DNA of 64,000 nt. Origin: an uncultured Planctomycetota bacterium (GTDB lineage Bacteria > Planctomycetota > Planctomycetia > Isosphaerales > Isosphaeraceae). Shown piece by piece: positions 1-38,116 of this stretch. The stretch is from NCBI GenBank assembly GCA_963823665.1, contig CAWGMQ010000005.1, positions 960,001-1,024,000 on the forward strand, read 5' to 3'. The translations under genes were made by a program, and so were the position numbers. The notes under the pieces are model-generated. The model was given only the letters and a program-made list of their open reading frames with translations, made no database searches and had not been told where the DNA came from. Each line of letters opens with the position of its first letter. Position 1 is the first letter of the stretch.

Positions 1-700
1 CGCCGCTTGCACCGAATCGGCGCTGGTGTTGAAGTCGAGCGGATACGTGACCTCGGTCGTGCCGCTCGCGACGGCGGAGATCGTGAACGTTCCCGCGGTG
101 GCGTCGTTGAATAACTCCAAGGCCCCGGCGGGCTCGGCTTGCTGCGTGCTCTGGTAGGACAAACCGGCGTCGTTGGTGGCGAGGTTGGAAACGCCGGTGC
201 CGATGATGACCCAGGGGTTCACCGCGGTGCCCGCGCCGGTCACCGTGACCTGGACGCCGGCCAGCGTGTTGAGGGCCGTCTGCACGGCGCCCGAATCGGC
301 ATTGTAAGCCAGGGTGCCGGTGGTCTCGGCCGTCCCATTGACGGTCGCGGTGATCGTGAACATGCCGCCACTGGCCGTATTCCACAGCCGCTGCTCTCCG
401 TCTGCGACGGTTCCCACGGTGCCGCTGCCCCCCTCGAGTCCCTGATCGTTGGCGGTAAGCCCCGACACGCCGCTGATCAGCCAGGGGTCAGTCGCCGTGC
501 CCACGCCGGTCACAGTGGCCTGCACGCCCGGGAGGGCATCGAGAGCAGCTTGGAGCTCGGGCGCGGTGGCGTTATAGGCCAGCGGGCCAGCCGTCTCGAT
601 CTGGCCATTCACGGTTACCAAGAGCGTGAAGGTGCCGCCGGTCGCGCGATTCCAGAGCTGCTGCGCGCCGGCCGGCACAGCTTGAACTGTGCTGCTGCCC
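1..700 (-). repeat. About 3 copies of a ~90-aa coding repeat (QQLWNxAxGGxFT...AYNA...VQxAL...VTVTGxGTxxxPW) in the giant protein
   Basis: Minus-strand translation shows repeated QQLWN/GGTFT/AYNA/VTGxGT..PW motifs; the last copy runs off the window. Confidence 0.65.
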
Positions 701-3700: not shown

Positions 3701-6700
3701 CCGCCGGCGGTAAGCGTGACTGTGTCGTCGGTATTGAGGGTGCTCGAAGCGGCGATATCGATGCCGCCGGGGTTGGTGTTGGGATCGGTCCCCGAGGTGA
3801 TGCTGACAAGGTTCCCCAGGTTCACACTCGAAGTGCCCACGAGGGTGTCTTTGGAAAGAACGGCCGAGCCGTTGGCCACCCCGCCCGCCCCGCCGGCGGC
3901 GCCGCTGCCCGAAGGTTCGACGAACTGGTTTTGCGCCGTTGCCGTCACCGTGCCCGAGGCGATGATGGCGGTGCTGTCCCCGGTGGTGTCGCCGATATTC
4001 ACGGTCGCACTCACAGGCGACGGCGATCCGGACTGCGTGGTGTCCGTGGCGGTTGCCTTGGCGCCGCTGCCGCCCAAGGCGGCGGCGAGGGTCGAGTTGG
4101 CGCTGGGGGCGTAATTGTCGGCGTTCGTGGCACTCACCGTGACGGTGCCGGCGTAGATGATACTGCCGCCGCCGATGCCCGCGCAGGCGGTCGAGGTGTC
4201 GTTGCTGTTGGCGGTTGCCGCATCGCCGGCCAGAACGCCGCCGCTGCCGGCCGTGCTCGAGGCGGTGTTCGTGTCCGAGCCCGACGCCGTGACGGAAAGC
4301 GCCCCGGTCCGGCCTGCGTTGGTATTGTTGTTGGTTCCCAGGTTGGCCGTGGTCGTGACGCCGGAACTGGCCGTGGCCGTGCTCGAGCCCACGCCGACCA
4401 AGCCCGCCGCGCCGGCGGTGGCATTGGCCGATTGGGCGGTCTGGTTCGTGGCCTCGATCGTCACATCCCCATCGGGAAGCGTGACGCCAGGGCCGGTGTA
4501 GGCCTTGATCGAACCCTGATTGGACGCGGTGGCGACCGTGGCTTCCACGCCCAGAAGGATGCCGCCGGCACCCCCCACCGAGGAGGCATAAGCCGTCGGA
4601 TCGGTGTTGCCCTCTTGGCCCTGGCCGGCCATCACGGTCAGACTTCCGGCGGTGATAGTGGCGGCGCTTGGGCTGTTGGCGCTGTCGGACGGGTTGGCCA
4701 CTCCCACAAAGGCAGAAACACTGGGTGCAACCACGGCACTCGTGACCGACGCGCCGATGCCCGCGCCTTCCGCGACGGCCACGCCGAATGCCTTGGCCGT
4801 GGCCGTGGGGGTCACCGTCGCCTGCACCATCATGGCGTTCGTGACCGTGAGTGGATTCGTGCCCGTCGAAGCCTGCACGTTGGGCGACGTCGTGGCGCTC
4901 GCGCCGGCGCCTTCGCCGGAGACGACGCCGCCGGCGAAGGCAGTGGCTTCGGCATCCGACGAATCGGTCGCCGTGGTCTGGACCGTCAGATTTTCGCAGC
5001 CGGTGATCACGCCATCCATGTACGAATTCGCCGAGCCATTGGCCAAGGCGGTCGTGGTGCTCGAGCCGATAGCGAGGGAGCCGCCGGCAATGCCATAGGT
5101 CATGGTCGTGGCGCCGTTGGTCGTCGTGGCGGTGATGGAGATATTGCCGGCGGCGTGCACGGTGGCCCCGCTACCCGCATAGGCTGTCACGCTGGGGCTG
5201 ACGTCGGCGATGGCATTGCCGCCGGCGAGGGCGCCGCCCGATGTGGCCGCTATCGACGTGGCCACCGACAGCGTGATCACCGAATCGTTCGAGCTGGCGC
5301 CGATCGAAATCTGGCCTCCGGAGGAGGTGATCTTCGCGTTATCGACGTAAGCGGTGATGCTGCTCTCCACGGTGTTATCGGCCGTGGAGACGCCGATCGA
5401 GCCGCCAATGTCGGCGCCTGCCCCGGCCCCGGCCCCGACTTCCGAGGTAATAGGGGCATTTTCCGCGGCGTCGAGCGTGATGTCGCCCTTCGCCGTGATC
5501 TTGCTCGGGGCGCTGGCGGAAGCGCCTTCGATATAGCTGGCGATCGTGTTTTTCACCATGTTGGTGGAGCTAGCGCCCGCGCCGGAGAAGGCCGCGCCCA
5601 GCGGCGAAGCGGCGACCGCGACGGTGGCCGCGACGGAGGTGGCCTGGATATCGGCCGTCGTGGGCACGATGGCGCTGAGCATGATCTGGCCCGCCGAGTT
5701 GATGGTCGAGGCGTCACTGTAGGCCTCGACCGTGTCGTCGACGCTGTTATCGGCGATGGCCGCGCCGATGGCAAAAGTCGCGGCCACCGCACCGGCGGCG
5801 AACGACACGCTTGCGGCGACGGTTTTGGCTGTGAGGTTGGGCGAATCCGTCGCCGTCAGGGTGACATCCCCGCTCGTTGTGGTGGTCACGGAAGCGCCGT
5901 CGGCGAGGTAGGCCTCGACGGTATTCTGGAGACTGTTGGTGGAATTACCACCGGCACCGGCGGCAGCACCGGCGGAGTCGCCGGCGCCGATGGCCACCGC
6001 GCCGCCGACGGTCACCGCAAAGATGGTCGTGTTCTCGGCCGCGGCCAGAGTCACACTGTATCCCGATGCGCTACAGGTGGAGTCGTCGACGTAGGCCAGG
6101 ACCGAATTGTCAATGTTGTTGGTGGCGACGGCAAAGCCAACGGCGGCCGCGAGGCCGGCACCGATGCCACCGACACCCACGGCCAGGCCGCCGCCGCCGG
6201 CGGTGATCGAGGAAGTGTCGGTCGCATCGATCGAGAGGCTGCCTCCACTCGCGGTCACCGTGCTCTTGCCCGAGACATAGGCATCAACATTGTTCTCGAT
6301 GGTGTTGCTCGAATCCGAACCGGCCACGGCCAACCCGGTGCCCTCAAAGCCGCCGACGCCCGCCGCGACGGCCCCACCGACCGTCACCGTCATGATGGTC
6401 GCGTTTTCGGTCGCGCTCAATTCCACGGCGCCCGCCGACTTCACGACCGCGTCATTTATATACGCCTTGACTGTGTTCTCGATGTCGTTGTTGGCCGCGG
6501 CCGCTCCCAGCGAGGCGCCGGTCCCGTCGCCGGCACCGACGCCGACGCCGATGCCCAGCCCGCCGGCGATCGCCTCGATGGAAGAGGTATCGAGGGCCGT
6601 CACGATCACGTCTCCGCCGCCGAAGGTCATGACCTCGCTGTTGCCCTGGATGTCGGCATCCACGTTGTTCATGACCGTGTTGCCGGACCCGGCGCCCGCG

Positions 6701-9700
6701 CCGCCCAAGCCGACGCCGTCGGCGCCGCCGCTTTGTCCGACACCCACGGCACCGCCGATCGTCCAGGCATCGATCGTTGCCGTCTCGGCCGCGATCACGA
6801 CCACGTCCCCGCCGGTCGTGTTCACCGTGGAGTTGTTGATATAAGCCTGGACCGTGTCCTGGACGTCGTTGATGGCCACCGAGATGCCGACGGAAGCACC
6901 GACACCACCGATCAAACCGCTGCCCACCCCCACACTCAGGGACCCGGCGACGGTCTCGATGGTGGGCTCATCCCCGGCGCCGATGCTGATCACGCCCGAG
7001 TCGGAAGTAACGCTGCTGTTGTTGATATAGGAAAGAACCCGATTCTCCACCGTGTCGCCGGAGCCGGCGCCGGCCCCGGAGCCGCCGATGCCGCCGAGTC
7101 CGCCCGTAGTCGTGGCGACGGAGACACCGATTGAGAGAGCCTTGATCGTCGGCTGCGACGTGGCGAGCAGGAGGACGTTGCCCGCGGAAACAACGTGGGA
7201 GCTGTTCACGTAGGCTTCGGTGGTGTTCTCGATCTCGTTGGAGGCCACCGACACCCCGGCGGCCAGCCCAAGGCCGGTCGTGGCAATGGCGACGCCGACG
7301 CCGCCGGCCAGCGCCTCGATGGTTGAGGTGTCCTGCGCGGTCACGGCTAGACTGCCCGAGCCGGAGGCCGTGGTGGAGACCTCAGGCGAGCCGGAGATAT
7401 GGGCGTCGGTGGTGTTGCGGATGATGTTTATCGAGACCGCCCCGCCGAGCGAGGCTTTGAGGAGACCTTTGCCCACCGCGGCCGAACCCGCGACGGTGAT
7501 GTTAAAGATCTGGCCGGTGTACGTGGCGCTCACGTCGATCTGACTGGCTTTCAAGCTGCCGGCGACGTTCTCGATGGCGGCGCGGACGACGTTGTTTTTG
7601 GTCGAAGTCGGATCGCTGGGATCGCCGCCCAGGTAGTTGAACGAGACCGAGGCGCCAACGGCGCCGAGGCCCCCTTGCGCCAACGCCGGCAATCGCTATC
7701 GCGCCGGCCAAGGACTCGATCGTCGAGGCGTCGCTCGCGGTCACGCTGAGTATGCCGCCGGCATGAATGGACTGGGAGGTGGCGATGTTCGACACCGCGG
7801 CTTCGACCGTGTTGTCGACCCAGTTGAGCGACAACGAGCCGGCAAAGGCGCCCGCGGCGGCGCCCGAACCGCTGACGGACATGGCGGCGATCTGCGCGTC
7901 AAGGCCCGGCGGCAACGTCGTGGACCTGGCGAACGTGGCACTTACCGTCATGGCGCCGCCTGATGAAGCGGCCGAGTCGTCGATCGTTGCGGTGTCGGTG
8001 TCCGCGATGTCGTTGACGGCCACGGCAGCGGCCCCGGCGCCGCTGCCGCCCAAGCTGGCGCCGATGTTGCCCGCCAGGGTGGCGATCGACGCCGTATCGG
8101 TAGCCATTACCGACAGCGCGCCGGCAGCGGTCACCAGCGACGGCGTGCCGCCGTTGCCGACACCCCCGCTCGCGGCGATAAAGGCGTCCACCGTGTTGGT
8201 GATAAAGTTGATGGCGAAAGAACCGCCGAAGGCGCTGCCGGTACTGGAACCGGCGCCGCCGACCACGACGTTGATGTCCTGCGCCGTCTCGGCGGCGGTG
8301 ATGTTGACGGCACCGCCGGACGCGACGGTTGATCCCTCCACATAGGCTTTCACACTGTTCGAGATATCGTTCACGCCGACGGAGGCGTTGACGGCGAAAC
8401 CTCCGCCGACCGAGATTGCCACAGAGACGGTGCCGGAGCCGATCTCCGAGGTGTCGCTCGACTCGACGTCCACATCGCCCCCGGCCTGGACGTCCGAGTC
8501 GTTGGAGATGTGAGCATCAACATTCATGCGGACGAAGTTCAGATTCACCGCGCCGGCGCCGGCTTTGTTCGTGCCTCCCGCCCCGGCGGCCGTGACGCTG
8601 ACCAACTGGCCGCTGATGGGAACGGGCAATGGCACCGTCACGTCCCCCAGGTCGAACTGAGTGGGTTTGACCACCAGGCTCTGGTTCGACCCGGTCCCGG
8701 GCGAGGTCAGAAACACCGGCTCGTTGTTGACGGCGTTATTGAACGTCGCCGCCAGCTTGATATGCGTGGGGTCAACCACGATGACGTAATAGGTTTGGCC
8801 GTCGGTCAGGCCGCCGATGCTCGTGCCTCCGCCGTTGTCATAAAAGACGGCATCGCCGGTGGCCAGGTCGGGGCTGCTGGCGAAGCTGATCTCGTCGGCC
8901 GCGGGGTTCGTGGTCGTCACGTCCGAGGCGGCGAAGGGCAGCGCCGAGCCGGGCAGGACCGGAGTGAAGCTTTGCCCATCGCCGCTGCCTGAGGAAGTGA
9001 GCGTGATCGGGGTCGGATCCGCGGCTGTGGCGTTGGCCAGGGACGATGCCAACTGGATGGTAAAGTCATTGACCCTGATGACGTAATACGCCATGCCGCT
9101 CGTCAGGCCGCCGATGCTGGTGCCGCCGCCGTTGTCGTAGACCACCTCCTGACCGGTCGAGAAGCCGGGGGCGGCGGAGAACGTGATCGCGCTCGTGACG
9201 GACCCAATGGCGGCGCGGATCTCCTTCTGGACTTCCGCGGCCAGCGAGTCGGCCGTGTATGTCGCGGGGGCCAGCGTGACCGTGATCGGCGTGCCGTTCG
9301 CCGTCAGGTCCAGAGTGTCGTTGCTGCCGGTCGTGATGGTGAGGTTGGCGGCCGCGGACCCCGTGATCGAGTCGCCGTTCGTGGTGGGAGCAGCGCCGAG
9401 CAAGCCAAATTCCGCGTCGCCCCCGGTCACGATGAAGTTCGCGTCGTTCGAGCTGATGGTCAGCACGCCCAGGTTCTGGGTAACGTCGACTGTGACGATC
9501 GGGACCGTGCTGCCCGGCAGTGTGACGCTCTGGGCGGATGGACTGAAGAATGCGGTCTCGGCGGTGTCGAGCGGAGCGATGGTTTGGCTCGAGCTCGTGC
9601 CGGAGGAGCTCAAGGGGATCGCTGTATACGATGTGGGCACCGTGAAGGAGCCGGTGCCGGCCGAGGTCAAGGTGATGGCGGTGCCGTTATTGGCGTCGTT

Positions 9701-12700
9701 GAGCGAGTCGGCCAGCATGATGTCCGTCGCGTCAACGCTGATCACGTAGTAGGTCGTGCCGTCGGTGAGCCCGCCGATGGGGGTGCCATTGCCGACGTTA
9801 TAAAGAACGGCCTCTCCGGTGTACAAGGCGGGACTGCCCGAGGGGAGCGAGATCTCGTTGGTCGAAGTGTTCACTCCGGCCACGTTGACCTGGATGGGGG
9901 TTCCAGAAACCGCGTCATCGTAGGTCGCGGCCAGCTTGATCGTGTAGGGATCAAGCACGATGACGTAATACGACTGACCGTTGGTCAGCCCGCCGATGCT
10001 CGAGCCGCCGCCGTTGTTGTAGACGACCTCCTGCCCCGTCGTCAGGCCATCGGGGGTGGCGAAGTGAATGGCGTCGCCGCTGACCGTGACATTCGAGCTG
10101 GGGTTGATATCCAGGGTGGTCGAGTCGGGGAGTGTGGTCGGGCTATTGAAGCCGGAGAGGACGAGGACCCGGCCGCCGGCGGTCACGCTTGAACTGTCGA
10201 TATAGGCCGTGACGTTGCTCGTTGGCTCGGGCACCGTGAAGGTTCCCGTGCCGGTCGAGGAGGTCAGGGGGATGATCTCGGTGGGGCTCGAGCTCGTGGC
10301 GTCACTGAGAGAGGGGTCGAGCTCAATGTCGGTCGAATCGACGGAAACGACGTAATAGGTGGTCCCGTCCTTGAGGCCACCGATGTCGGTGCCGCCGTTG
10401 CTGTGGTAGGTAACCGGCGCGCCCGTGTAGAAGCCGGGATCGCTGGCGAAGCTGAGCTCGTCGCCGTCGGTGATGACGGCGTTCACATCGGAGGGGCCGA
10501 ACGTGGCAGCCGGCGAGGCCATTAACGGGGTGAAAGTGTGCCCCGTGCCGCTGCCCAAATTAGGGCCGAGGGTGACGGGGATGGTGGGCGTGGAGAGGGC
10601 GTTTGCCTGGCTGGCGGCGAGCTCAATCCCGTTGTCGGGGGCCAGGATAATGTAGGAGCTGGCCCCCTCGGTCAGGCCATCGATGCTGGTGCCGCCGGCG
10701 TTGTCGTAGACCAGCTCTTCGCCGCTCGAGAGGCCGTCCGCGGCGAAGATGGCGCCGTTCAGTTCCTTTTGTAGCTCGGCGGCCAGGCCGGCGATGGTAT
10801 ACGTCCCCGGAGCCAGCGTGATCTCGAGCGCCGTGCCGTCCACGTTCACCACGAGGGTGTCGTTGCTGCTGGAAATCGTGGTGGAATTGGCGGCGGCGCT
10901 CGAGCCGGTGATCGAGGTGCTCGTGGTTGAAGGCGAGCTGCCGAAGAGCGCGGTCAAAGCGGATCCGCTCACCTCGATGTCGGGGGCCGAGCCAGGCAGT
11001 GGGACATTGTAATTCACAAGCAGCGTGCCGCTGCTCTGCGTGACGCTGAAGAGGTAAATCTCGTTCCCGGAGATCGAGGAATTCGTGGGATTGAACGTCA
11101 CGGCCGGCGTGGATTGCAGATTCGTAAGCGTGAAGGTTTGGCCCGAGCTCGTGCTGCCGGTCGAGGACAGGGCGATCGCCGTGCCGGCCGCGGCGTTCGC
11201 GCTGCTCGAGGCGAGCTGGATGTGGTTGGGAACAATGACGATGACGTAATACGTCTGGCCATCGACCAGGCCGGCAATGGGGCTACCGCCGCCGGCATGA
11301 TAGACGACCGCGTCCCCGGTCGAAAAACCATGGTTGGGTAAATCGATTTCGGTATCGACGGGAACCGGGTTATCCGCGGTCACGCTGACGGTCGTGCTGC
11401 CCGGGAGGATGCCGTCGCTGTACGACAGAACGTTGGGATCAAGCGGCGACAAGCCGCCCAGGTAGTTGTACGCGATCGAGGCGCCGATCGCGCTGCCGGC
11501 GGCGGTCCCGGCGATGCCCAGGGCGACCACGTACTCCGAGGCCGCCTCGCTCGAGTTCACCGTCACATCGCCGCCAGGAGCCGTCACGGTCGAGTCAATC
11601 ACGTGCGCGTCTACTGTATTGGCGATGGAGTTGATGGTCAGCGTGCCGGCGCCGGCAATGCTCGTGCTGCTGCCGGCCCCTTCGGCGCCCACCGCCACCA
11701 GGAGCGGGCTCGACGTAGCCGACAAGCTGACGGAACCACCGGACTCAACTGTGGAATCGGCGATGTAGGCGGTGATGGCGTTGCTGATTCGGTTGTAGCT
11801 GATTGAGACGCCGCCGGCCTTGCCGCTCAAGGAGACCGCCACCCCGCCGGCGATGGCGACGATGAGCGAATCGTCGCTGGCGCTTGAAGACAGCGCCGCC
11901 AGCCGTGACCTGCGAGCCGTCGTCGATCAGAGCACCGATCGCATCGACGATCTGGTTGACGCTGATGGAGCCCGCCGCCGCCCAGCCTGAGCCGAGACCG
12001 GCGGCGATGCCGACGTTCACGCCGCCGATCTGCGCGGTGGACTGAGACTTGACCGTCACCGCCCCGCCGACGTTCACTTTGACGTCATCGAGATAGGACT
12101 CGATGGTGGACTGGATGTCGTTGTACCCGATCGCTGCACCCAGGTTTTTGCCCGTACCGTTGCCGCCCGCGACTGCAAAGCCGATGGCCACGATGCCGGA
12201 GGTGTCGTTGGTCTCGAGGTCCAGGCTCACCGGGCCGGTGGAGGTCATTCCGGCGGGAGGCGCCACCTCGGTGACGGTCGAGTCCTGGATGTAGGCTTCG
12301 GTTTCGTTCTTGATCACGTTGACCGAGACCATGCCGGCGCCGGCCGTCGGCCCGTTGCCGAGCCCGACGAACCCGGTGATGGTGATGATCCGCGGGTCGG
12401 AGGTGCTGTTCTCATTCTGCGCCGAGACCTTGAGCGTGCCGCCGGTCATGTTGACCGTCGAGCCGGTGATGTACGCATCGGTCGTGGCGGGCTGGTTGGG
12501 GATGATCTGGACCTGGTTCGAGAAGCCGATCAGGTTCACGGCGATCGCGGCCCCGTAGCCCCCCGCTCCGCCGTAGGTGCCCGCGCCGGCCACGGACCAG
12601 ATCAGCGACGAGTCGGCGGCGGAGACGTGCGAGTCGTCCGCGAGATCGAGGGTTGAGTTCGTGACGTAGGCGTCGGTATTCGGCAGCAGGATGTTGATCG

Positions 12701-15700
12701 ACACCGAGCCGGCGATCGCCGTCCCGGTTGCTTTGGGTGCGCCGGAGCCTCCTGCGGTGATCGCGCCGATGAAACCGCCGCGGTCCGAATCCATGGCGAG
12801 TTGGTCGGCCTGGATGAATCCGCCCGAGATATAGGCCTTGGTGGTGCTGATCACGGCGTTGACGCCGAGCGAGCCGGCGAAGCCCGTGGATTTGACGGTC
12901 TGGGTATCGGAGGCCGCGGAGCCCGTCACCGACACGTCCTGGGAGTCGTTGGTGGCCTTGACGGTCAGGTGGTCGGCGCTGGTAATGGTCGGCGTGGTGC
13001 TGGCCGGCTCGTTGATCGCGGCGATCGTCGTGTCGCTTACGTAGTCGACCACGACGTCGCCGGCCACCGAGATGCTGGTCGTGGGCGGTGTCGGCGTGGG
13101 CGATGGTGTCGGTGTATTGGCGGCCGGGGGCTCCACGGATTGCCCGTCCGGCAGATCGATGCCCTCGACGTCGTCCCCCGCGAAGGCATCCTCATCCGGG
13201 TCCTCGCCGAGGAAATCCGAGAGTGACTGGACGACCTCGCTCGGGTCCTCCGATTGTGACTGCGCCTGGCTCTGTCCTCCGCCGCCGCCGGCCGGCGGCG
13301 CGCCCGAGGCCGGCTGCGGGCCCGGGTTGACGATGGAGCCCGCCAGGGCCAGGCCGATATTGAGACCCGAGTTCTGGGCTTCCACGGTGACGTCGCCGGC
13401 GGCGTCGATCACGGCGGGTGCGCCGGTGGGCGTGGTGCCGTCGGGCGCGCCGATGTAGGCGCTGGTGTCTCGCTCGATGACGTTGACACCGACCGAGACG
13501 CCGATGCCGTCGTTGCTCCCCGAGAGGGCGCTGCCCGCCACGGTGACGTTCACCAGGCTGTCGGCGGCGCTGACGCTTACATCGCCCCCCGCGTCGACCG
13601 TTGCCCCATCGGCGATGTCGCCGGTCGTGGTGTTCTCGACGACCACGACCGTCGCCGAGCCGTCGATCGCCGTCCGTCCAGCCTTCCCCGAGGCGGCGCC
13701 GATGGCGACGTCGAGGATATTCGTCGTGGCATCCACGCTGACGTTATGACCCCGGACTAGGGCGTCGCCGGCGATCGACGCCTCGGTCGTGTCCAGATAG
13801 GCGAGGCCGAGCAAGGCGCCGCCGACTCCGGTCCCGCTCCCAGTTGCGCCGTTGGGGGAAGCTGGGATTGAACCTCGTGACGTTCTGGAAGAGCACCGGG
13901 AGGACCCCGGAAACATTCAGGGTCTCAACATCCGTCTCGGCCTTTACGCTCACGTTTTGCGCAGCGGAGCTCTGGGCCTCGTCCTGGTTGATCTCGGCCC
14001 CCGAGCCGATGGTGGCTTCCGTCGTGTTGCTGAGGACGTAAACGTCCACCGAGAACGCGACCCCGTTGTTCGTCCAGTTGGCGGCCGACTGCGACCAGGT
14101 CGTGAAGTACGACTCAACGCCGAGATCGTTAGTCAAAAGGGTCGCCACACTCTCTTTGGCGAAAGCCTCGAAATTGGCGAGACTGGAGAACGCGTTCTGA
14201 GCCTGCTCCACCTGCGGAGAGATCGGGATCGTGGTCGTCGCATCGATCATCACGCACCCCGCTGCGTTGATGACGGCCATCGGATCGACGGTGGCCTCCG
14301 AGTCGTTGGTGAGGTAGGAGAACTGAATCGCGACGGCGCCGGCATTCTTCTTGCTCAACGACTGGGAAGCCTGGTAATCCCCCCAGCTTGGACTGGTAAA
14401 GGCGCCCACGTTGGCTAGATTGAGAACCTCGCCGGCCGCACTGGCGGTCAGGGCATCGGTGACCGACGACTTGACGGAGACGTTCCCGCCCGCATCGATC
14501 ACGGCGGTCCCCTCGATCGTGGCGAGCGCCGTGTTGGTGTCGATCGCCACGGCCACGGCGCCGGAAAACCCGCTCTTGGCCTTGTTCGTGGCTCCCGCCG
14601 CGGCCTGCTGCTCCTGCTTGGTGGCCCTCGCCTGGGCCGACTTGCCTATCTTTTGATAAAGTTCGCTCGACGACTGGGAGTACTCGGCCGCCGCGCTCGT
14701 GAGCGCGTTGTATGACCGGATCTGGTTGGCAGCGAGCGTGGGGGTGCCGACGAACCCGTCGCCGATGATGGAGGCGGCGGAGGTCGCATCCCCCGGTGTC
14801 GTCCCAGAGGCTGTCGGATTCGCGGTCGCCGAGACCGTGATGCCCTGGGCGGCGTCGATGGTCCCGGCGACGTCGGTTTCGGCGTCGGTGGACGAGACCG
14901 TCAGCGCGAGCACCAGGTCGAACGTGTCGAACCCGCCCCCTCCGAACGACGAGTTGTTGATGTCCCGGCTCGCCGTAGAGGTTACCGACACGCTGCCGTC
15001 CAGTGAATCGATCGTGGCGCCCTGATCCACGCTCGTATGCGCGGTCGCGCTCGAGACGACGACGACGACGACGAAATCCAGCCCTAATACCACCTGTGCC
15101 GCTGAGGAGATCGAGAGGTTGGTCGTATCGACCGTCATCGTGTTGGTGGCCGCGCTGCTGATGGTGACGTTGCCGCCCGCCTCGATGGTCACCCCCGAGC
15201 CGATGTCGACGGTGGAGCCCGACGTGGCCTGCGCGACCGACAGGGCGATTAACGCGGGGCTGAAAGTGTGGATGGCGACCCCCGAAACCGATTGACCCTG
15301 GATCGTCACCGTCCCCGACGCGATGATGGTCGTGTTCCCATCGATGTTGATGTTGGTGGTCTGCGTGGTATTCGCCTCTCCGCCGACGATCGAGATCGAG
15401 TTCAGGAATTCCAACACGGACTGGCCGAAAGGCGATGCTTTCGAGAGAGAATTATTGCTCCCGGTATTGGCGTTGTTGGCTGTGGCCTGGATCGTGACGT
15501 TGTCGCCCTCCAGGACCGTCGGATCCGCGGCCGTGCCGCTGATGTCGATCGAGGCGCTCTGGCTCTGAGGTTGGATCCCCGTGAAATAAAAGTCAGGTGT
15601 GAACGCCTCGACGTCGGCAGTGAGACTGATGTCGCCCGTCGTGTAGACGCTATGGGATAAGTTGATATTCTGCTCGTCGAGAGAGAACGTCGAACTGCCG

Positions 15701-18700
15701 AGGTTGACGCTCTGACTGATCGTGAAGTCACCCCCCTCGAACGAGAGAGCGGCCCTGAGCGAGGGGTCGACGGAAACGAGGGTCAGGTCGTCCGAGTCGA
15801 TCGTCAGCGACGTGGCGGGGTCCGGGACCGTGATGGTGTTGCCATCCTGGGCCATGATCTGCATGGTCCCCGACACGGATCCCGCCTGGAGTGACACGTT
15901 CCCCGACACGACGATCGTGGGCGTGGCGTCGGCGGCACCGCCGGTCGTGCCCTCGATCGTGTCGTTGCCGAAGTCGGCGGGGAAGACATAGGTGTCGTTG
16001 CCGCCGCCGCCGACCAGTGAATCGTTGCCCTTACCGGCGATGAGGATGTTGTCCTCGGTGTTGCCGGTCAGCGTGTCGTTGCCGCCGCCGCCGACAACGT
16101 TCTCGATCGTGTTGCTGGGCTCGAGCGTCAGCGTGATTCCTGTGGCGATGGTCTGCGGCGTCGTGAGCGCGAGGCTCACGTCGATGCTTGTTGTCTGCGT
16201 GGTCGAGAAGTCCAGGGTGGCCGGCCCTTCGCCACTAACGCCGTAGATCACTTCAGTGCCGTGATCGTCGTCGGCATTAAAAGCGAATGTATCCAGGCCC
16301 GCTCCGCCCGTGATCGTATTGTTGCCGGTGCCGGCGGTGATCGCGTTGTTGAGGTTATTGTTGGCGATGATCGTATTATCGCCGCCGCCGCCCTTCACGT
16401 TCGAGATCAGGCTCGCCGAGGCCAGCGTCAGCGTCAGGTTGGAGTCGACGACCTGCGCAGTCGCCAGCCCGATATTGATGGAGACCGGCTCGGTTTGCGT
16501 GCCCGAGAAGTCCAGGGTGTCGACGCCGTCCCCCTGGTTGTCGGTGATCGTGACGCTACCCAGCGGATTGTCGGCATCGAAGGCGAAGGAATTGTTGCCA
16601 CCGCCGCCGTCGATCGTGTCGCCGCCGGGGCCCGCGGTGATCGTGTCGTTGGCCGCGCCGCCGATGAAGCTGTTGACCGCGGTGCCCAGCGTCAGCGACA
16701 GCCCCGAGGCGATCGTCTGCTGGGAGGTCAGACCGAGGTTGACATCCAGGTTGGCCTTCTGCGCCGCCGAGAAGTTGGGCGTCACTGCCCCGCCGGATCC
16801 AGCCTCGACCACGTCGCTCCCCTGGTCGGTGTCGGCGTCGATGAGAAACGTCACGGCGCCGCTGCCGGGGATCAGGGTATTGTTGCTGGTCCCGGCGGTG
16901 AACGTGTCGGCCTGCCCGTTGCCCGTGACCGTGCTCGCGCCTCCGCCGCCAATCACGCCGTTCACATCGTTGCCGGCCGCCAGGGTCAGCGACAGGTTCG
17001 GCGTGACCTGCTGCGCCGCGGTCGACGCCAGGCTGACCGTGACGGCCGAGTTCTTCGAGGACGAGAAGTCGAGGGTCGTGGTCCCACCGGAGGCGGTCGG
17101 GGCATTGATGAGGTCCGTGCCGTCGGCCATGTCGGCGTCGATGGCAAAGGTGTCGTTGCCCGATCCGGGCGTGAATGTATTGTTGCCCGGTCCGGCGGTG
17201 AAGACGTCGTTCTGCCCGTTGCCCGTGACCGTGTTGGGGCCTCCGCCGCCAATCACGCCGACCACATTGTTGCCGGCCGCCAGGGTCAGCGACAGGTTCG
17301 GCGTGACCTGTTGCGCCGCGGTCGACGCCAGACTGACCGTGACGGCCGAATTCTTCGTGGACGAGAAGTCAAGGGTCGTGGTTCCACCGGAGGCGGTCGG
17401 GGCATTGATGAGGTCCGTGCCGCTGGCCGTGTCGGCGTTGATGGCGACGGTGTCGTTGCCCGTTCCGGGGGTGAACGTGTTCTGACCCGGGCCGGTGGTG
17501 AAGACGTTATTGAGCGAATCGCCCGTGACGGTGTTGGCCGCCTGGCCGCCGATCACGTCGGTGATTCCACCGGCCGGCTTAAGGTAGAGGCTGAAGTTGG
17601 AGGTGATGGTCTGGGGATTCACCTGCGAGAGGTCAACGGTCACCGGCGTATTCTCTGTAGGCGCGAAATCGAGCGTGTCGACTGCCCCTTCCGTGGTCTC
17701 GATCGTGACGTCGCCGAGCGAATTGTCAGCATCCAGGACGTAGGTGTTGGTCCCAGTCCCTCCCTGGAGCACGTCATTCGCGTCGTTGGGCGTGAACGTA
17801 TTGGCACCCCCGCCGCCGATCACCTGGTCGACCGTGTTGCCGGGCTCGAGCGTCAGTTTGAGCTTCGGGGTGACGTCCTGGACCCCCGTGTTCGAGAGGT
17901 CGACGGTGACCGCCGTGCTCTGGGTGGGCGAAAAGTCGAGGGTCGCCATCTGGGCGTTCGCGTTGCCGTAGATCTGGGTGCTGCCGTTGTCGTCGTCGGC
18001 GTCGAAGGCGAACGTGTCCAGTCCGGTGCCCTCGTACAGCACGTTGTCGCCGGTCCCGGCCGTGATGTCGTCGTCGGCGGAGTTGGCCGTGATCTTATTG
18101 GTGGCCGCGCCCCCGATGACGTCGTTGACCGTACTGCCGGACTCGAGCGTGATCGAGAGGTTCGGCGTGACTTGCTGGGCCGCCGTGCTCGAGAGATCGA
18201 CGGTGACCGGCGTCTGCTGGGTGGGCGAGAAGTCGAGCGTAGCCGTTGAGGCATTGGCCCCGGCGTAGATCTGGGTGCTGCCGTTGTCGAGGTCGGCGTT
18301 GAAGACGAAGTCATCCAGCCCCGAGCCGGCCGTGAGGACGTTATCGCCGGGCCCGGCGGTGATGGTGTTGTTCTCGGAGTCGCCGGTGATCGTGTTGAGC
18401 CCTGCGCCGCCGATGACGTTGATGATGCCGGGCACCGAGGCGAGGTCGGTGGCCGTCGCCGCGGAGAGGTCGACGGTCACGGGAGCGGTGTACGCGCTGT
18501 AGTCGAGCGTGGCGTTGTCGCCCAGCCCGGAGCTGATATTCATGTCGCTGCCGGAGCCTTGCATCCCGGCACCCATGACGAAGTTGTCCGTCCCATAGCC
18601 ACCGTTCAAGTTCGTGACCCCCGCGAAGCTGACCTGACCGTCGAGTGTGCCGGCCCCGGCGCTGGTGAGGTCCCAGGTTTGGGTGGGGTCCGCGGCGCTC

Positions 18701-19116
18701 GAGAGCGACGCCAGCGTGTTCTGACTCGTGCCGCCGGCGTCCTGAACCGTGATGTTGTCCGTCGATAGGACATCGCTGAGCGTGGGTGCGATGTTCAGCG
18801 TGTCGTTGCCGGTGCCCAGGTGCACGACAATCGCGCTTAAGTCGGTCAACGACGCATACTGGGTGTAACTCACTCCGTCGCTGCTGTACTCGATGTCGCC
18901 CGAGCTCACCGCCAACGTCAAGTTGTCGTTGAGATTGGCCGAGTCGGTGAAAGTGAGCGTCCGCGTCGTGGGGTTGAATGAGGGCGTGATCGAGAGGAGC
19001 CGCCGCGGCTCGAGCGACTCGACGCCGAGTTCGGCCCACCAGCCCCTCCGGCCGGGGCGCCGAGTCTTCCGGTTGGACCGCGGGCCCTTTCCCCACTTCC
19101 CAAGATGCTGATTCAT
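1..19116 (-). CDS. Giant LEPRxLL-leader filamentous surface protein/adhesin (>6,300 aa; 3' end outside window; three apparent +1 frameshifts near 13855, 11890 and 7670)
   Basis: ATG at 19116 with GGAG RBS. The N-terminus is a basic leader ending in VESLEPRRLLS. ORFs 13744-19116, 11745-13916 and 7502-11842 continue each other in sequence style. The next frame reads as coding and stop-free where I translated it (1-60, 3181-3420) and runs to the window edge (e.g. ...TTEVTYPLDFNTSADSVQAA). Contains TLDFS/GGxGxxT Ca-binding-like repeats, long Gly/Ala/Ser/Val beta-helix-like repeats (AIGASxAxNxIxNTVxAYI) and FCCH-like repeats. Confidence 0.88.
8690..11345 (-). repeat. Seven FCCH-like (E1 FCCH/phage structural-type) beta-domain repeats in the giant protein
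   Basis: Seven copies of xGxxTGxxVxYxxxGGxxIxGLxxGxxYYVI...IxLA, e.g. [31 protein letters not shown] and [31 protein letters not shown]. Confidence 0.75.
16890..17490 (-). repeat. Near-identical 300-bp tandem duplication within the giant gene
   Basis: The sequence from 16912 recurs at 17212 (offset exactly 300) with few substitutions; it encodes DLINAPTASGGTTTLDFSSxKNSAVTVSLASTAAQQVTPNLSLTLAAGN twice. Confidence 0.9.
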
Positions 19117-19149: not shown

Positions 19150-19311
19150 TCAATATGGGTGCGGGCTCAAAGTGAACGCGAGCAGCGTGCGGTCTTCGAG
19201 CGCTTCCGGGAGCGGCCCGGTCCACCTCGTGAGCTTCGGCTTTTGGCCAAGAGCGCGCCGGGAGTGCTTCACCCGGCTTTCGGCCGGGGATCTGCGCCAG
19301 AACCTCGCCAT
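19150..19311 (-). CDS. 53-aa small ORF consisting almost entirely of a planctomycete LEPRxLL-type leader (possible remnant)
   Basis: Manual translation: MARFWRRSPAESRVKHSRRALGQKPKLTRWTGPLPEALEDRTLLAFTLSPHPY*. RBS GAGGT lies 7 nt before the ATG. It is absent from the ORF track, whose shortest entries are 60 aa. Confidence 0.7.
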   Translation of the reverse strand: MARFWRRSPAESRVKHSRRALGQKPKLTRWTGPLPEALEDRTLLAFTLSPHPY

Positions 19312-24749: not shown

Positions 24750-24830
24750 TGTCCACTGTCCGTGATCCGTTGTCCGTTGTCCAAGACGAAAAGGCAGCCT
24801 CCTCCGGTCTGTTCACTGAAAACGGACAAC
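24750..24830. repeat. In-frame palindromic heptamer element in kinase 2
   Basis: tgtccac-tgtccgt-gatccgt-tgtccgt-tgtccaa ... aacggacaac, at the same position as in kinase 1. Confidence 0.7.
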
Positions 24831-25372: not shown

Positions 25373-25435
25373 GCGAACGAACAACGGGACCTGGCGAACA
25401 AACAACGGGACCTGGCGAACGAACAACGGGACCTG
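25373..25435 (+). repeat. 21-bp tandem repeat x3 encoding ANEQRDL/ANKQRDL/ANEQRDL
   Basis: gcgaac(g/a)aacaacgggacctg three times in tandem. Confidence 0.92.
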
Positions 25436-32644: not shown

Positions 32645-34762
32645 ATGACGGAAGAAGTGATCGATCCAGGTTTGCTCGAGCAAACGAAGAATCAAATCCG
32701 AAAGCTGGTCGCCGAGATCGCCGACCTGGCGGAATCGGACATTCAACCCAACGAATTCTACGTTGAGTTCCTGAACCGGGCCGTGGCGGCGGTGGCCGCC
32801 AGCGGCGGTGCGTTCTGGATGCTGGACGGCCGGGGCGGCTTGAGACTGCAGTATCAGGTCGAGTTCGCCATTACCGGAATGATGGACGGCCGCGTCAAGA
32901 CCGCGCCACACGATGCACTGCTCGGGGCCATGCTCCAGGCGACACAGGCCCAGAACATCCCGCCCAACGCGGTGATCGAGGGTATGCCACAGGCGTTCAA
33001 CCCGACCGACCTGGCTCTCATCATCGCCCCGCTCATGGTGGACAAGCAGGTTGTCGGCCTGCTCGAGATCTTGATGGACCCCACCCGGCGTGCTGCGCAG
33101 CAGAAGAGCACGCTTCGGTTTGTCAGCGACCTGTGCGACCTGGCGGCAACCTATTTGAAGAACCGCCAGATGCGGCAGATGATGTCGCAGCAGCGGCTCT
33201 GGAATCAGCTTGAAGGGTTCACCCACCAGATCCACGGCTCGCTCGATCTCAAGGAGACGTCGTACTCGGTGGTCAACGACGGCAAGCGGCTGGTCGGGTG
33301 CGACCGGCTTTCGGTCGCGCTGAAGATCTCCGGCAGGACGATGGTCGAGGCCATCAGCGGCCAGGAAATCGTCGAGCAGCGATCCAATCTGATCCGCGAG
33401 CTGACCAGGCTTTGCAAGGTCGTGATTCGATCGGGAGAAGACCTGGTCTACACCGGCAACACCGAAGGTTGTGCGCCTGATATCCGCGACGCACTGGAGA
33501 TGTACGTCGACGAGTCGGGCTCCAAGGTCGTGGTGATCACGCTTTTGCACAAGCCCGATGAGGATAAGGAAAAGGGGACCGACAACAAGAGTCGTGAAAA
33601 GATTCCCTTCGGCTGCCTGGTCTCCGAGCAGATCGGCGACGAGCTGGCGCCGACGGACATGCACGCTCGCACCGAGGTGGTTTCAAGGCACGCGTCGACC
33701 GCGCTCTGGAACGCACAGGAACATCACAAGATCTTCATGAAGCCCGTGTTGAAAGCCATGGGCTCGCCCTGGCGGATGTTTCGCGGCCGCACGCTGGCCA
33801 AGATCGGCGCCGTGCTCGGGGCCATTCTGGTGTTCGTGATGTGCATGGCATTCATTCCGTGCACGCTCACGATCGAGGGCCATGGCTCGCTGCTGCCGGA
33901 AGACCGGCACAAGATCTACGCGCCGGTGGCCGGGATCGTTGCCGCGGTGCCCCTGGACCACGACGAGCGAGTGCACAAGGGAGACATCGTCGTCAAACTC
34001 GACAGCAAGGACCTGCAGAAAGAGCTGAACGGCTTGATCGGCGAGCGGCAGAAGGCCGAGAGCCAGATCGGGTCTCTGAGCCAGCAGGTCCAGAAGCTGC
34101 GGTCGGGCCAGGACTCCGCGGATTTGATTCAAGTGCAGGCGCAACTGGCCGAGGCCAAGATCACGGCCAAGAGCACCAAGGCGCGCATCGAGATCGTGGA
34201 GGAGCAGCTCGAGTCGATGAACGTTCGCTCGCCGCAGGACGGAATCATCACGACGTGGGAAGCGCGTAAGAACTTGATGGGCCGCCCGGTCGAGATCGGC
34301 ACCGAGGTGCTCCAGATTGCCGCGACCGACGGCGAGTGGATCCTCGAAGTCGAAGTTCCGGACGACGACATGGGCCCGGTCCTGGCCGCCCAGAGCGATC
34401 TCGAGGCCGATATCCGAGAGAACCGAAAGAAGCCGGGAACGACATTGCCGGCCTTTTTCGTGACGATGACCGACCCCGAGCATCGCTACCAGGGTTACGT
34501 GATCCGGGTCGCGCCCAGCGCCGAGACGATGGCGGAATCAGAGCAATACAAGAACCGGCACATCGTCAAGGTGACCGTCGGCTTCAGCGAGGCCGTGCGG
34601 CAAGACTATCTGGCGCGCAACAACATCAAAGAGATGCGTCCGGGTGCGGAAGTCCGGGCGCGGGTCAATTGCGGACGGACCAACCTGGCTTACTACCTCC
34701 TCCGCAAGCCGATCCAGGTCTTCTACGAGTCTGTCCTGTTCCGCTGGCCGTTCCTGAGCTGA
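32645..34762 (+). CDS. GAF-domain / HlyD-family membrane fusion protein
   Basis: N-terminal GAF-like regions (LIIAPLMVDKQVVGLLEI; GCDRLSV), one TM, biotinyl-lipoyl halves IYAPVAGIV...VHKGD and VRSPQDGII around a coiled coil. Confidence 0.88.
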   Translation: MTEEVIDPGLLEQTKNQIRKLVAEIADLAESDIQPNEFYVEFLNRAVAAVAASGGAFWMLDGRGGLRLQYQVEFAITGMMDGRVKTAPHDALLGAMLQATQAQNIPPNAVIEGMPQAFNPTDLALIIAPLMVDKQVVGLLEILMDPTRRAAQQKSTLRFVSDLCDLAATYLKNRQMRQMMSQQRLWNQLEGFTHQIHGSLDLKETSYSVVNDGKRLVGCDRLSVALKISGRTMVEAISGQEIVEQRSNLIRELTRLCKVVIRSGEDLVYTGNTEGCAPDIRDALEMYVDESGSKVVVITLLHKPDEDKEKGTDNKSREKIPFGCLVSEQIGDELAPTDMHARTEVVSRHASTALWNAQEHHKIFMKPVLKAMGSPWRMFRGRTLAKIGAVLGAILVFVMCMAFIPCTLTIEGHGSLLPEDRHKIYAPVAGIVAAVPLDHDERVHKGDIVVKLDSKDLQKELNGLIGERQKAESQIGSLSQQVQKLRSGQDSADLIQVQAQLAEAKITAKSTKARIEIVEEQLESMNVRSPQDGIITTWEARKNLMGRPVEIGTEVLQIAATDGEWILEVEVPDDDMGPVLAAQSDLEADIRENRKKPGTTLPAFFVTMTDPEHRYQGYVIRVAPSAETMAESEQYKNRHIVKVTVGFSEAVRQDYLARNNIKEMRPGAEVRARVNCGRTNLAYYLLRKPIQVFYESVLFRWPFLS

Positions 34763-34883
34763 GCCGCGCGGGTCTGTTCTGTCTGCTCAACCCAGCCGGG
34801 CGGCCGGATTCGAATATCGTGTTGACCAAAGAAGCCGGGCGCGGCCCGGCAACCAATCGAAGGCGAGGAGGCTCGTTACCACA

Positions 34884-35844
34884 ATGATTATCCCCAAAAC
34901 GATCGCCGCCATGGGCGCCGGCTGCCTGATTTTATTGGGCGCCGTCGCACTGGCCCAGACCGGCGGAGACGACCCGCGCCGAAACGGGAACGTGCAGCCG
35001 CTGGTCCTCGAGGAGCTGGCGCGAATTGACTGGATCGAGAAATCGAGCGTCGCCGCTCTGCGCGAGGGCGTGATCGAGAGCATGGAGCTTCAGATCGGCA
35101 TGCCGGTCAAAAAGAACGGTGTCATCGGCGTCTTGCATCATGAAATCGCCGAGCTCACTGTGAAGAAGAATGCCCTTCAGGCCAAGGCCATCGCGCCGGA
35201 AGAAAAGGCGCGGGCTCAAAAGGAAGTGGCCATCTCAGTCGTCGCTCGCAACACCCGGCTCAACGATCGACAGCCCGGCATGGTCTCGGCTGAAGATGTG
35301 GCCAAAGCCGAGGGCGACTTGAAAGTTGCCGAAGCCCAGATCAAGGAAGCCCAGGAGAACCGCGCGATCGCCGGGGCCGAGCTCGAGCCTCGCCAAGCGG
35401 ACGCTGGACGAGCACACGATGGTGGCGCCCTTCGACGGAATCGTCTTGAGCCGCAAGAAGAATCCCGGCGAAAGCGTGCGGGCCAACGACACGGTGATCG
35501 AGCTGGGCGACCTGCGCCGACTGGTAGCCGAAGCTTATGTGCCGCTTGACTACGCCTTCCGCGTGAAGGAAGGCCAGGTCGTCGAGATCCAGCCGCGGCT
35601 TCGCTCCTCCGGACGCGGAGAGCCGCTGCCGATCGAGAAGAAGCGATTCCGAGGCAAGATCACGTACGTTGACCCCCAGATCCAGCCCGTGGCCGAGAAC
35701 GCCGTGCGGATTCGCGCGGAATTCGAGAACCCTGGCGACCTGCGTCCGGGACTGATGGTTCAGATGACCATCTACCTGGCGCCGGCGGTTGCCGGCAATG
35801 CTCCCGCGGAGAACCCGCCGACCCGGACGGCGCGCGCCCAGTAA
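34884..35844 (+). CDS. HlyD/RND periplasmic adaptor with signal peptide, +1 frameshift near 35388
   Basis: Signal peptide, VAALREGVIE, coiled coil; the shifted frame gives LAKRTLDEHTMVAPFDGIV...GKITYVDP...LRPGLMV. Confidence 0.85.
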
Positions 35845-35932
35845 TTAATCACGGCGAAGAGGGGGGAGAGGCCCTCGGGTTTTTCGGCCCCCCGCCATTC
35901 GATTGGAACAGAATCAATAGGGTTGTCGATCC

Positions 35933-38116
35933 ATGAGTGCTGCTCCCACCCTGGCCCCCACGCTCCCCTTCGGGCAGGCCGCCGAACATCTGGTGGTCAA
36001 GCTCCGACCCGATCTGGTCGTGCAGCCCCAGTTCTATGAGGGCATGACCCACTACGTGGTCAAGGACCCACTGGCGCTCAAGTACTTTCGATTCAAGATC
36101 GAGGAGTACTACCTGCTCGAGCAGTTCGACGGCAAGCTCACGCTTCAGGAGGTGAAGAAGGCCTTCGAGCGGAAGTATCGCCCCCAGACGATCTCGATCG
36201 AAGACTTGACACGGTTCGTCGCGCAGCTTCACGAAGCGGGCATCGTGCAGATCGACAGCGGCGAGCAGGCCAAGGTGCTGATTCGCCGCCGCAAGAAGAA
36301 CCGCTGGCGGAAGGTCTGGGCGTTCCTGGCGAACATCCTCTTCATCAAGATCCCGATCATCGATCCCGAGCGTCTGCTGACGAAGATGTACCCGTACTTC
36401 CGCTGGATCTTCACGCGGACGTTCGTCACGCTCAGCACGTGTTCGATGCTGCTGGCGCTTGGCCTGGTCGTCAGCCAGTGGAAGACGTTCTACGACAAGC
36501 TGCCGGATTTCCAGAGCTTCTTCAACTGGTGGACCATCATGAGCTTCTGGGTCTGCCTGGCCTGCGTGAAGATCATTCACGAATTCGGCCATGGGCTGAC
36601 CGCCAAGCATTTCGGGGGCGAGGTCCACGAGATGGGGATCCTGTTCCTGGTGCTCACCCCCGCGCTTTATTGCGACGTCACCGATAGCTGGCTCTTGCCC
36701 AACAAGTGGAAGCGAATCTGGATCTCGGCGGCGGGCATCTACGTTGAGTGCTTTCTGGCGAGCATCGCGACCTTTGTCTGGTGGTACAGCACACCCGGGC
36801 TCTTGAACAGTCTCGCGATGGCGACGATGTTCATCTGCTCGGTGAATACCATCATGTTCAACGCTAATCCCCTGCTCCGGTATGACGGCTACTACGTGAT
36901 GGCCGATTGGCTCGAGATTCCCAACCTGCGGATCAAGAGCACGCAGTTCTTCGCCTACTTGATTCAGGAGAAGGTGCTGGGACTGGAAATTCCCGTGCAG
37001 AGCTACATGCCCAAGTCGCGGCGGCTCTTGTTCGTCACGTACTCGGTGGCCAGCTACATCTATCGCTGGTTCGTCACCTTCGCCATTCTGTGGTTCCTGT
37101 CGCAGGTCTTGAAGCCATACAAGCTCGAATCGGTCAGCTACTTACTTGCAACCGGCGCACTCGTACCCTTGTTGGGCATGCCGGTTTATCAGATCGGCAA
37201 GTTCCTTCGAACGCCCGGGAGGTTGCGCAAAGTGAAAAAGGCACGTGCGGCCGCCTATGCGGCGGCGGCGATCGCACTCGTCGTCGGGATCCTCTTGATC
37301 CCGACACCACTACGAATCGACGGCACGCTGGTGCTCAAGCTCGAGAAACCTGAAGAGATCTACGCCGAAGTCGAGGGCCAGCTCATGGAGCTGAAGATCC
37401 GCGACGGCGAGTGGATCGAGAAAGACGGGCTGATCGCGAAGCTCAAGAATCCGGCCAAGGAGAAGGAGCTGCACGAGCGTCAGCAGGACCACGACATTGC
37501 ATGGAGCAAGGCGCAGTGGTACCGCACGAGCCCCGAGCGCGAGAATCGCGCTCAGGCCGTAACGCAGGAAGAATTCGCCGCCAAGATGGAGACCACGATC
37601 GAAAAAATCAACCAGCAGCTCGGCAAGCTGACCTTGATAAGCAATCGAGGCGGCCGGGTGGTGGGCTTACCGCACAGGGAAACGGTCGGGCAGTGGGTCA
37701 AGCCGGGCAAGCCGTTCTGCGAGGTCGGCGACCTTCAGAAGCTGGAAGCTCACCTGATCGTGGACCAGTCGGACATCCACCTGATCAAGCCCGGCGACAC
37801 CGCCTGGATCAAGATCTACGGCCGTGCCGAGCGGACGATCAAGAGCAAGGTTTCCGCAATCGCCAAGCGCAGCAGCGACGAGGTGCCGACCGAGCTCTCG
37901 AATCTCGCCAACGGCGAAGTGGCCTCCAAGCCGGACCCGAAGACCGGCACCGCCCATCCGCTGACGGCGGTTTACGAAGTGATCATTCCGGTCGACAACG
38001 CCGACATGAAGTTCGAGCCCGGCCTCCGCGGCCATGCCAAGATCCACGGCGGCCACTACACGCTGGCCTGGTGGCTGGTGCGCTGGTGGAACAAGATGTT
38101 TAACTTCCAGCTCTAG
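35933..38116 (+). CDS. PqqD/RRE-like + M50 (site-2) metalloprotease + HlyD-like fusion protein
   Basis: N-terminal YVVKDP...YFRF...LLEQFDGKLTLQEV winged-helix pattern; HEFGH zinc motif; NANPLLRYDG; multiple TMs; C-terminal adaptor (IYAEVEGQL...DGEWIEKD...FEPGLRG). Confidence 0.9.
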   Translation: MSAAPTLAPTLPFGQAAEHLVVKLRPDLVVQPQFYEGMTHYVVKDPLALKYFRFKIEEYYLLEQFDGKLTLQEVKKAFERKYRPQTISIEDLTRFVAQLHEAGIVQIDSGEQAKVLIRRRKKNRWRKVWAFLANILFIKIPIIDPERLLTKMYPYFRWIFTRTFVTLSTCSMLLALGLVVSQWKTFYDKLPDFQSFFNWWTIMSFWVCLACVKIIHEFGHGLTAKHFGGEVHEMGILFLVLTPALYCDVTDSWLLPNKWKRIWISAAGIYVECFLASIATFVWWYSTPGLLNSLAMATMFICSVNTIMFNANPLLRYDGYYVMADWLEIPNLRIKSTQFFAYLIQEKVLGLEIPVQSYMPKSRRLLFVTYSVASYIYRWFVTFAILWFLSQVLKPYKLESVSYLLATGALVPLLGMPVYQIGKFLRTPGRLRKVKKARAAAYAAAAIALVVGILLIPTPLRIDGTLVLKLEKPEEIYAEVEGQLMELKIRDGEWIEKDGLIAKLKNPAKEKELHERQQDHDIAWSKAQWYRTSPERENRAQAVTQEEFAAKMETTIEKINQQLGKLTLISNRGGRVVGLPHRETVGQWVKPGKPFCEVGDLQKLEAHLIVDQSDIHLIKPGDTAWIKIYGRAERTIKSKVSAIAKRSSDEVPTELSNLANGEVASKPDPKTGTAHPLTAVYEVIIPVDNADMKFEPGLRGHAKIHGGHYTLAWWLVRWWNKMFNFQL

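Follow-up and report, generated by a model that had tools for sequence, protein, structure and literature searches.

A secretion locus without an ABC (ATP-binding cassette) transporter has been predicted by Kamneva, Poudel, and Ward (2015; PMC4452313). It comprises three proteins with HlyD domains (an M50 protein, a secretion protein, and a GAF protein), a secondary SecA, which can also lie elsewhere in the genome, and sometimes TolC. The M50 protein was proposed to be the pore; the system is a prediction only. The available text of that report names no substrate, and "PqqD" does not occur in its main text. A second line of work concerns the export signal RRLxxExLExRxLLA (PF07595), known in its LEPR-XLL form as NF012209, which is the same motif as the one treated here and was found in 52 genes of Tuwongella immobilis, with 20 of the products detected by proteomics, including 8 of the 10 longest proteins (Seeger et al., 2021; PMC8567305). 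In the available text of that paper, HlyD, SecA, and type I secretion have no occurrence. The tag has been presumed to be a signal since 2004 (Studholme, 2004, via PMC8567305). Some of the largest proteins of bacteria begin with it as well, namely the giants of Chlorochromatium, which have 20,000-36,000 residues. A 2026 preprint on Chlorochromatium describes LEPRxLL giants in which no known transport signal is present and puts forward SapC, TolC, and a single HlyD for them, and the term "M50" has no occurrence in its available text (10.64898/2026.03.19.712371). The subject of the present work is a three-gene operon at positions 32645 to 38116 of a 64,000-nucleotide stretch (the window; contig CAWGMQ010000005.1, positions 960,001 to 1,024,000) from an uncultured planctomycete of the family Isosphaeraceae, which appears to connect the two.

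All proteins of this genome that carry an LExLExRxLL leader are likely served by one secretion machine without an ABC transporter, of which the three genes would supply the half that lies in the inner membrane and periplasm. A RiPP (a peptide synthesized ribosomally and then modified post-translationally) recognition element, or RRE domain, is predicted to bind the leader, the M50 zinc protease fused to it would cut it, and the three adaptors would pass the chain into a TolC encoded elsewhere in the genome, with a truncated SecA as the likely cytoplasmic motor in this lineage. To this reading we give a probability of about 0.6; it draws on observed domains, fold, catalytic conservation, co-occurrence, and gene neighbourhoods, while its statements on cleavage, export, motor, and cognate TolC are inferred from these. 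For the pore in the inner membrane, the preferred guess is that it is built from the membrane helices that genes 1 and 3 encode, and SecYEG would be the alternative.

Pfam confirmed the three co-oriented HlyD-domain genes that an initial annotation, made from the sequence alone, had called. Gene 1 (32645..34762, + strand; 705 residues) encodes a cytoplasmic GAF region (PF01590, E 8.9e-7, over the cut-off), a membrane anchor at about residues 387-405, which is its single strong hydrophobic segment by hydropathy, and a periplasmic HlyD adaptor (HlyD_3/HlyD_D23, likewise over the cut-off). Gene 2 (34884..35844, +) encodes an HlyD-type adaptor of about 319 residues with a signal-peptide-like N-terminus, and its HlyD domain is spread over two frames by one extra base near 35399, as judged against three relatives. 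Since a short-read contig with 216 identical letters shows a one-base gap at this site as its sole difference, and since the gene is a single open reading frame (ORF) in 65 of the 67 related loci in which both halves were found, the frameshift is very likely an assembly error; frameshifts also hit other genes of the same assembly. Of 80 related loci, 73 have gene 1 upstream of gene 3 and 67 contain gene 2 with its two halves, the loci that lack either being short contigs or distant Pirellulaceae; the closest relatives are mostly labelled Isosphaeraceae or Planctomycetota. A six-frame search confined to the 64-kb window turned up neither a Walker-A nor an LSGG[QE] pattern, and no TolC or RND-pump family was found among the subset of window ORFs scanned, in line with the absence of ABC ATPase, TolC, and RND pump noted in the initial annotation.

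Gene 3 (35933..38116, +; 727 residues) holds the central position in the proposal. Pfam reports M50 (PF02163, E 2.8e-9, over the cut-off), HlyD, and a weak PqqD match under the cut-off (E 0.038). Among the matches listed for this 16.46-Mb genome, to which all genome-wide counts below also refer as lower bounds, it is the sole M50-HlyD protein. Its AlphaFold model, built with 136 sequences, has a mean pLDDT (predicted local distance difference test) of 91.4 and consists of an N-terminal domain, a helical membrane region of the M50 (site-2) type, and a periplasmic adaptor, which resembles MacA/MexA when matched to solved structures (E ~1e-11). The N-terminal domain (residues 15-102, 35975..36238, +; three strands and three helices) has an RRE fold in this model. 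Its profile matches are to TfuB1, an RRE of the lasso-peptide type (E 4.4e-4), and to PqqD (E 0.0024), and by structure it aligns best with TbiB1 (Z 10.8, root-mean-square deviation 2.5, 82 aligned residues), followed by TfuB1 (Z 10.6), scores to be read with the caveat that some non-RiPP winged-helix domains also reach Z 8-10. Foldseek alone returned no RRE match under E 0.001 for the domain, with TbiB1 nonetheless at the top rank. The zinc motif HEFGH (residues 216-220, 36578..36592, +) and the motif NPLLRYDG (residues 312-319, 36866..36889, +), whose D318 is the likely third zinc ligand, are both present, and the initial annotation was right to describe an M50 protease fused to an RRE-like domain. 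H216, E217, H220, and D318 are unchanged in 136 of 136 aligned homologues, most of them at 28-45% identity, as are N312 and P313, and this invariance makes a working protease likely, rather than a mere pore.

The leader of a nearby candidate client was used to model recognition. This 42-residue basic leader (MNQ...VESLEPRRLLS; 18991..19116, - strand) begins a giant gene in the same window, as the initial annotation had described. When its residues 19-52 were combined with residues 10-455 of gene 3 and zinc, the complex scored 0.69 and the best of three controls 0.01; of 157 solved complexes 116 attain the same mark as this complex, and of 215 mismatched pairs 2 do, a calibration that is rough here, where own alignments and a ligand were used. 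The runs share at least 70% of contacts, with a partner pLDDT of at least 53, and interface columns are more conserved than the others (0.71 vs. 0.52). In the model, V32 and L35 of the leader contact strand 3 (residues 50-54) and helix 3 (95-99) of the RRE domain, R38 contacts residues 249-253 and 321 of gene 3, and leader residues 29-44 jointly touch H216, E217, H220, and D318. Typically, an RRE takes up its leader as an additional strand that lies between strand 3 and helix 3, and binding of the leader by the RRE domain of gene 3 is predicted. Because the spacing of V32 and L35 matches that of L(-7) and M(-4) in daptide leaders, the cut is placed, tentatively, just after the near-invariant R38.

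Leader and module co-occur across the phylum. All markers were searched in the same 221 Planctomycetota genomes of at least 90% completeness, of which 65 matched the protease and 63 remained after two weak partial matches were dropped. NF012209 matches were found in 35 genomes, and 32 of these are protease-positive; only 3 of the 158 protease-negative genomes have one. When labels were shuffled inside families, the shared genomes averaged 25.7, and about 1 in 10,000 shuffles reached 32. An own leader profile of 49 rows, whose training set came in part from this very sample of genomes, matched 42 genomes, 38 of them with the protease. PF07595 was rejected as a profiling marker, being noisy, and its matches in protease-negative genomes are mostly internal and in frames that are not genes; likewise, 11 of 12 leader matches read from protease-negative genomes are not N-terminal leaders.

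The two are also neighbours more often than expected. Of 39 genomes, 12 have a leader match no more than 20 kb away from the protease (1.9 expected), and 31 of the 80 related loci have a leader gene in the flank; about 23 of these leader genes belong to one orthologous family and are therefore counted as a single event. A conserved gene (L032:12911-16996 and homologues, in about 27 of the 80 loci) encodes a leader-bearing protein of 1,300-1,600 residues, convergent with the module, which has EF-hand matches and subtilase-like motifs seen by eye, with no Pfam hit for the latter. It is followed by kdtA and canonical secA, and this gene order is likely ancestral for the family. In other phyla, eight proteobacterial plasmid loci, picked for taxonomic spread from 65 records, were inspected in gene tables that are incomplete. 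All eight have a gene of 3,300-16,200 residues directly upstream of the module, seven show an LExR-type leader, and six loci include TolC. Taken together, the LExLExRxLL leader as address tag of the module has good computational support. An Escherichia coli plasmid and related plasmids (L196, NZ_CP081687.1) carry a form without SecA, with a 4,459-residue Ig-like gene, TolC, and three adaptors, and the protease query matches 17-18 Escherichia and 8 Citrobacter plasmid records.

The motor and the outer channel appear to be scattered in this genome. Two SecA_DEAD genes are among the matches listed, canonical secA on contig C5 and a short one on contig C10 (C10:2030507-2032485), frameshifted in the assembly and present as one 652-residue frame in a congener. 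The latter stops after about 650 residues, gives no match to SecA_SW, is present in 11 of the 12 members of the family that were examined for it, and, in a quick tree, clusters with module-adjacent paralogues and apart from canonical SecA (support 94). It thus corresponds to the secondary SecA of Kamneva et al., with SecA_DEAD, without most of SecA_SW, and located elsewhere in the genome; the initial annotation described the parts of the operon correctly and missed this one, which belongs to the same locus type. The truncated gene directly follows a murB-like and an ftsQ-like gene, the latter with a weak POTRA match (L006:10508-14645; G000 C10, ~2030500-2034600). Canonical secA in E. coli follows the division cluster, a place that this position recalls. 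Across the sample, at least two SecA_DEAD matches occur in 43 genomes, 39 of them protease-positive. A diverged module-adjacent SecA paralogue (L146:11157-13106; SecA_DEAD E 9e-23) falls below the counting threshold, and the genomes with a single strong SecA match may include more of this kind. The SecA matches near the module in relatives were considered as such paralogues and rejected, since they are canonical SecA. For the outer membrane, the genome has at least 39 OEP domain matches; the nearest match to one module-adjacent TolC (C11:242348-244357) has 27% identity and several paralogues in its family, and at this identity it does not identify the cognate TolC. At least three DUF3467 genes are also present.

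Several observations weigh against the proposed mechanism. PF07595 profiles weakly, with the protease in just 11 of 21 matched genomes, and one genome (G205) has a genuine leader gene, on a 6-kb contig, while a profile search for the M50 region found none in this genome, which is 91% complete with 6% contamination. No own-profile leader match was obtained in 25 of the 63 protease-positive genomes, with 29 candidates scored per genome; in some of these, divergent leaders (MEERIVLD) or a small LEERIAP peptide adjoin the protease. Related genomes are not independent in any of these counts. The controls of the complex included no scrambled or foreign leader, and its pass may owe to likeness to solved RRE-leader structures. 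The motif likeness between daptide and LEPR leaders, on which the cleavage register depends, amounts to five positions and to less than 1 bit with the own leader profile. Finally, a single strong SecA match is all that 24 of the 63 genomes with the protease contain, and five of the eight plasmid loci have no SecA-like gene, the other three being recognized by motif (two) or by size, place, and annotation (one). The truncated SecA is therefore proposed as a likely motor for this lineage and not as a universal part of the module.

The tracking of the module by the truncated SecA also fits a two-step route, in which the module reads and cuts the leader, and the chain, pushed by SecA in its truncated or its ordinary form, crosses the inner membrane through SecYEG before passing from the periplasm into the conduit of adaptors and TolC. 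Of the alternatives, it is the main rival. Canonical secA lies in the fetched flank of 21 of the 80 related loci, and the giant LEPRxLL proteins of Chlorobium are reported as periplasmic when the partner cell is absent (10.64898/2026.03.19.712371). The leaders, however, have no hydrophobic core, with the best 10-residue hydropathy below 1.4 in 48 of 49, the truncated SecA ends at about 650 residues with no SecA_SW match, and the secA linkage is synteny of one family, so that this route is considered unlikely. Direct passage of the chain through the membrane parts of the operon is the guess preferred here.

Ordinary type I secretion would be another explanation, with the ABC transporter encoded elsewhere and the three genes supplying adaptors and a leader peptidase only. 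The RTX-like nonapeptides of the nearby giant and the many OEP matches would suit it, but an ABC ATPase pattern was found in just 3 of the 80 loci that are close relatives and, in a diverse set of 20, in 1, and the compact plasmid loci, in which giant, TolC, and three adaptors stand together, list no ABC exporter in their incomplete gene tables. The nonapeptides, moreover, lie in the N-terminal piece of the giant and not at its C-terminus. We regard this explanation as quite improbable.

A role in signalling is slightly less probable still. Gene 3 would then be a regulatory site-2 protease or a maker of small peptide signals, with GAF as the sensor, and Kamneva et al. (2015; PMC4452313) did suggest a sensory role for the GAF protein, whose domains are present in gene 1. 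In genome G201, an 83-residue peptide gene with the start MKSRFNIVKLEERIAP and the motif LEERIAP lies directly upstream of an RRE-M50-HlyD gene (L149:9452, +), in a locus where no GAF partner was detected. This locus is interpreted here as the small-cargo form of the pairing of leader and module. A small leader peptide gene was looked for near the studied operon and none was found; the proteins that bear the leader are large and repetitive, and in other phyla the module has TolC and giant genes at its side, which speaks against signalling.

The initial annotation had linked the operon, as a hypothesis, to the giant protein whose leader starts at 19116 on the - strand, 13.5 kb from gene 1. The genome has at least 121 leader-profile matches (from scoring 150 out of 1,600 candidates; 18 of 20 matches that were read have a leader close to a start), and a leader gene within 13.5 kb of the operon has a chance probability of about 0.18 or more. 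With one M50-HlyD match for so many leaders, the nearness of the giant was therefore discarded as evidence. The link holds computationally for the leader class of the genome, and the giant is a plausible client, not the privileged one. That the operon is dedicated to this single protein is very improbable: module and giant are adjacent in other bacteria, but here one module among the matches listed faces no fewer than 121 leader matches, the two are separated by housekeeping and kinase genes, the module-side leader gene of about 23 of 80 relatives encodes a different protein of 1,300-1,600 residues, and an integrase gene flanks the far end of the giant.

The giant gene itself (1..19116, -) is in pieces, extends about 7.4 kb past the window start, and totals about 8,800 codons, with the RTX-like nonapeptides in its first, N-terminal piece and LktA-type tandem repeats in the next two. 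Past its far end lie a tyrosine integrase and a TraG/TrwB-like coupling protein (L008:1650-9465), which suggests an integrated mobile element in this flank. Upstream of the giant, a 53-codon ORF (19150..19311, -) consists almost only of a second leader (PEALEDRTLLA) and is likely a gene remnant. It is preceded, within 19150-19500 (-), by a short frame reading TSNFSAVLQELGIAVLVTPYQAGDLAMLR, which we take to resemble the start of a DUF4915/TIGR03032 protein, and both look like remnants. The genes between giant and operon include an ECF sigma factor and two tandem Ser/Thr kinase-WD40 genes, both frameshifted in the assembly (19761-27654, +). On the other side of the operon are a tandem pair of orphan RND-type adaptors of 507 and 512 residues, with no adjoining pump or TolC (47850-51311, +), and a 2,222-residue RHS protein with N-terminal PASTA domains and about 20 C-terminal repeats of the DDDCPPGMSGN type (53709-60377, -). 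Scans for regulatory sites were uninformative, with 1 promoter-like site against 1.1 expected and 10 terminator-like sites against 5.3 (standard deviation 2.3). With an identity threshold of 85%, contigs from three RNA libraries, all of the same study, account for 28-29 of 30 bins; they come from relatives and were rejected as proof of operon transcription.

Among characterized proteins, the closest relative of gene 3 is MpaP, the intramembrane protease of daptide biosynthesis. The best NCBIfam match is the corresponding family NF041824 (E 4e-51), at 174 bits and below its cut-off of 300, and the gene 3 family profile aligns the annotated Streptomyces MpaP at E 2e-56, reaching the first strands of the adaptor. 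As in MpaP/DapP, the RRE domain is N-terminal to an intramembrane M50 domain, and the daptide leader ELExMEAP contains a pair of hydrophobic residues with the spacing of V32 and L35, three positions (Ren et al., 2023; 10.1101/2023.03.08.531785). The Discussion of the same report states that MpaP removes the leader. Its alanine scan concerns the RRE of MpaB, and for MpaB-dependent modification L(-7) and M(-4) were essential. Unlike MpaP, gene 3 carries a full HlyD adaptor and has no tailoring enzymes beside it; no mpaB-, mpaC-, mpaD-, or mpaM-like gene was seen among the window ORFs scanned. Streptomyces daptide precursors read LEALEAP or LEVLEAP, compared with [LVI]ExLExR here. Gene 3 is therefore related to MpaP and falls outside the daptide family proper.

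Type I secretion systems have an ABC transporter as their inner-membrane component, and in peptidase-containing ABC transporters (PCATs) it is combined with a C39 cysteine peptidase and a double-glycine leader. The present operon shares with them the MacA/MexA-like adaptor fold and, as proposed here, the use of a TolC and an N-terminal leader cut at the inner membrane, and differs in having neither an ABC ATPase nor an ABC membrane domain, a zinc M50 protease, three different adaptors, and an LExLExRxLL leader; on this basis, it belongs with type I systems in adaptor fold and not by membership. Its mode of action is nevertheless likely to resemble, in part, that of type I systems and that of the daptide protease. 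If the proposal is right, an N-terminal-leader, ABC-less route through TolC would exist, protein secretion would be tied in evolution to the leader peptidases of RiPP pathways, and one gene with one catalytic glutamate would control the processing and display of more than 100 proteins in this genome. Whether the module is a distinct, RiPP-derived secretion core, in which an MpaP-related fusion reads and cuts the LExLExR tag and threads cargo of 80 to 16,000 residues through its own membrane ring and TolC without an ABC pump, and which in Isosphaeraceae serves as the single general pathway for more than 100 surface proteins with motor and outer channel scattered, is to our judgement an even bet.

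Joining the 2015 locus, for which no cargo is named, with a planctomycete export tag, for which no reader is named, is new here as far as the available text of these reports goes, and no paper that joins module and leader was found in the literature covered; subscription journals and supplements, including the Kamneva tables and those of preprints, lay outside it and may bear on this. The operon itself matches the locus of Kamneva et al. (2015; PMC4452313) in its M50-HlyD, HlyD, and GAF-HlyD proteins standing together with no ABC transporter among them, and in a SecA encoded elsewhere in the genome. It differs in the place of the SecA paralogue, which is found on a separate contig after a murB-like and an ftsQ-like gene, and it is a dispersed variant of this secretion locus already predicted in print.

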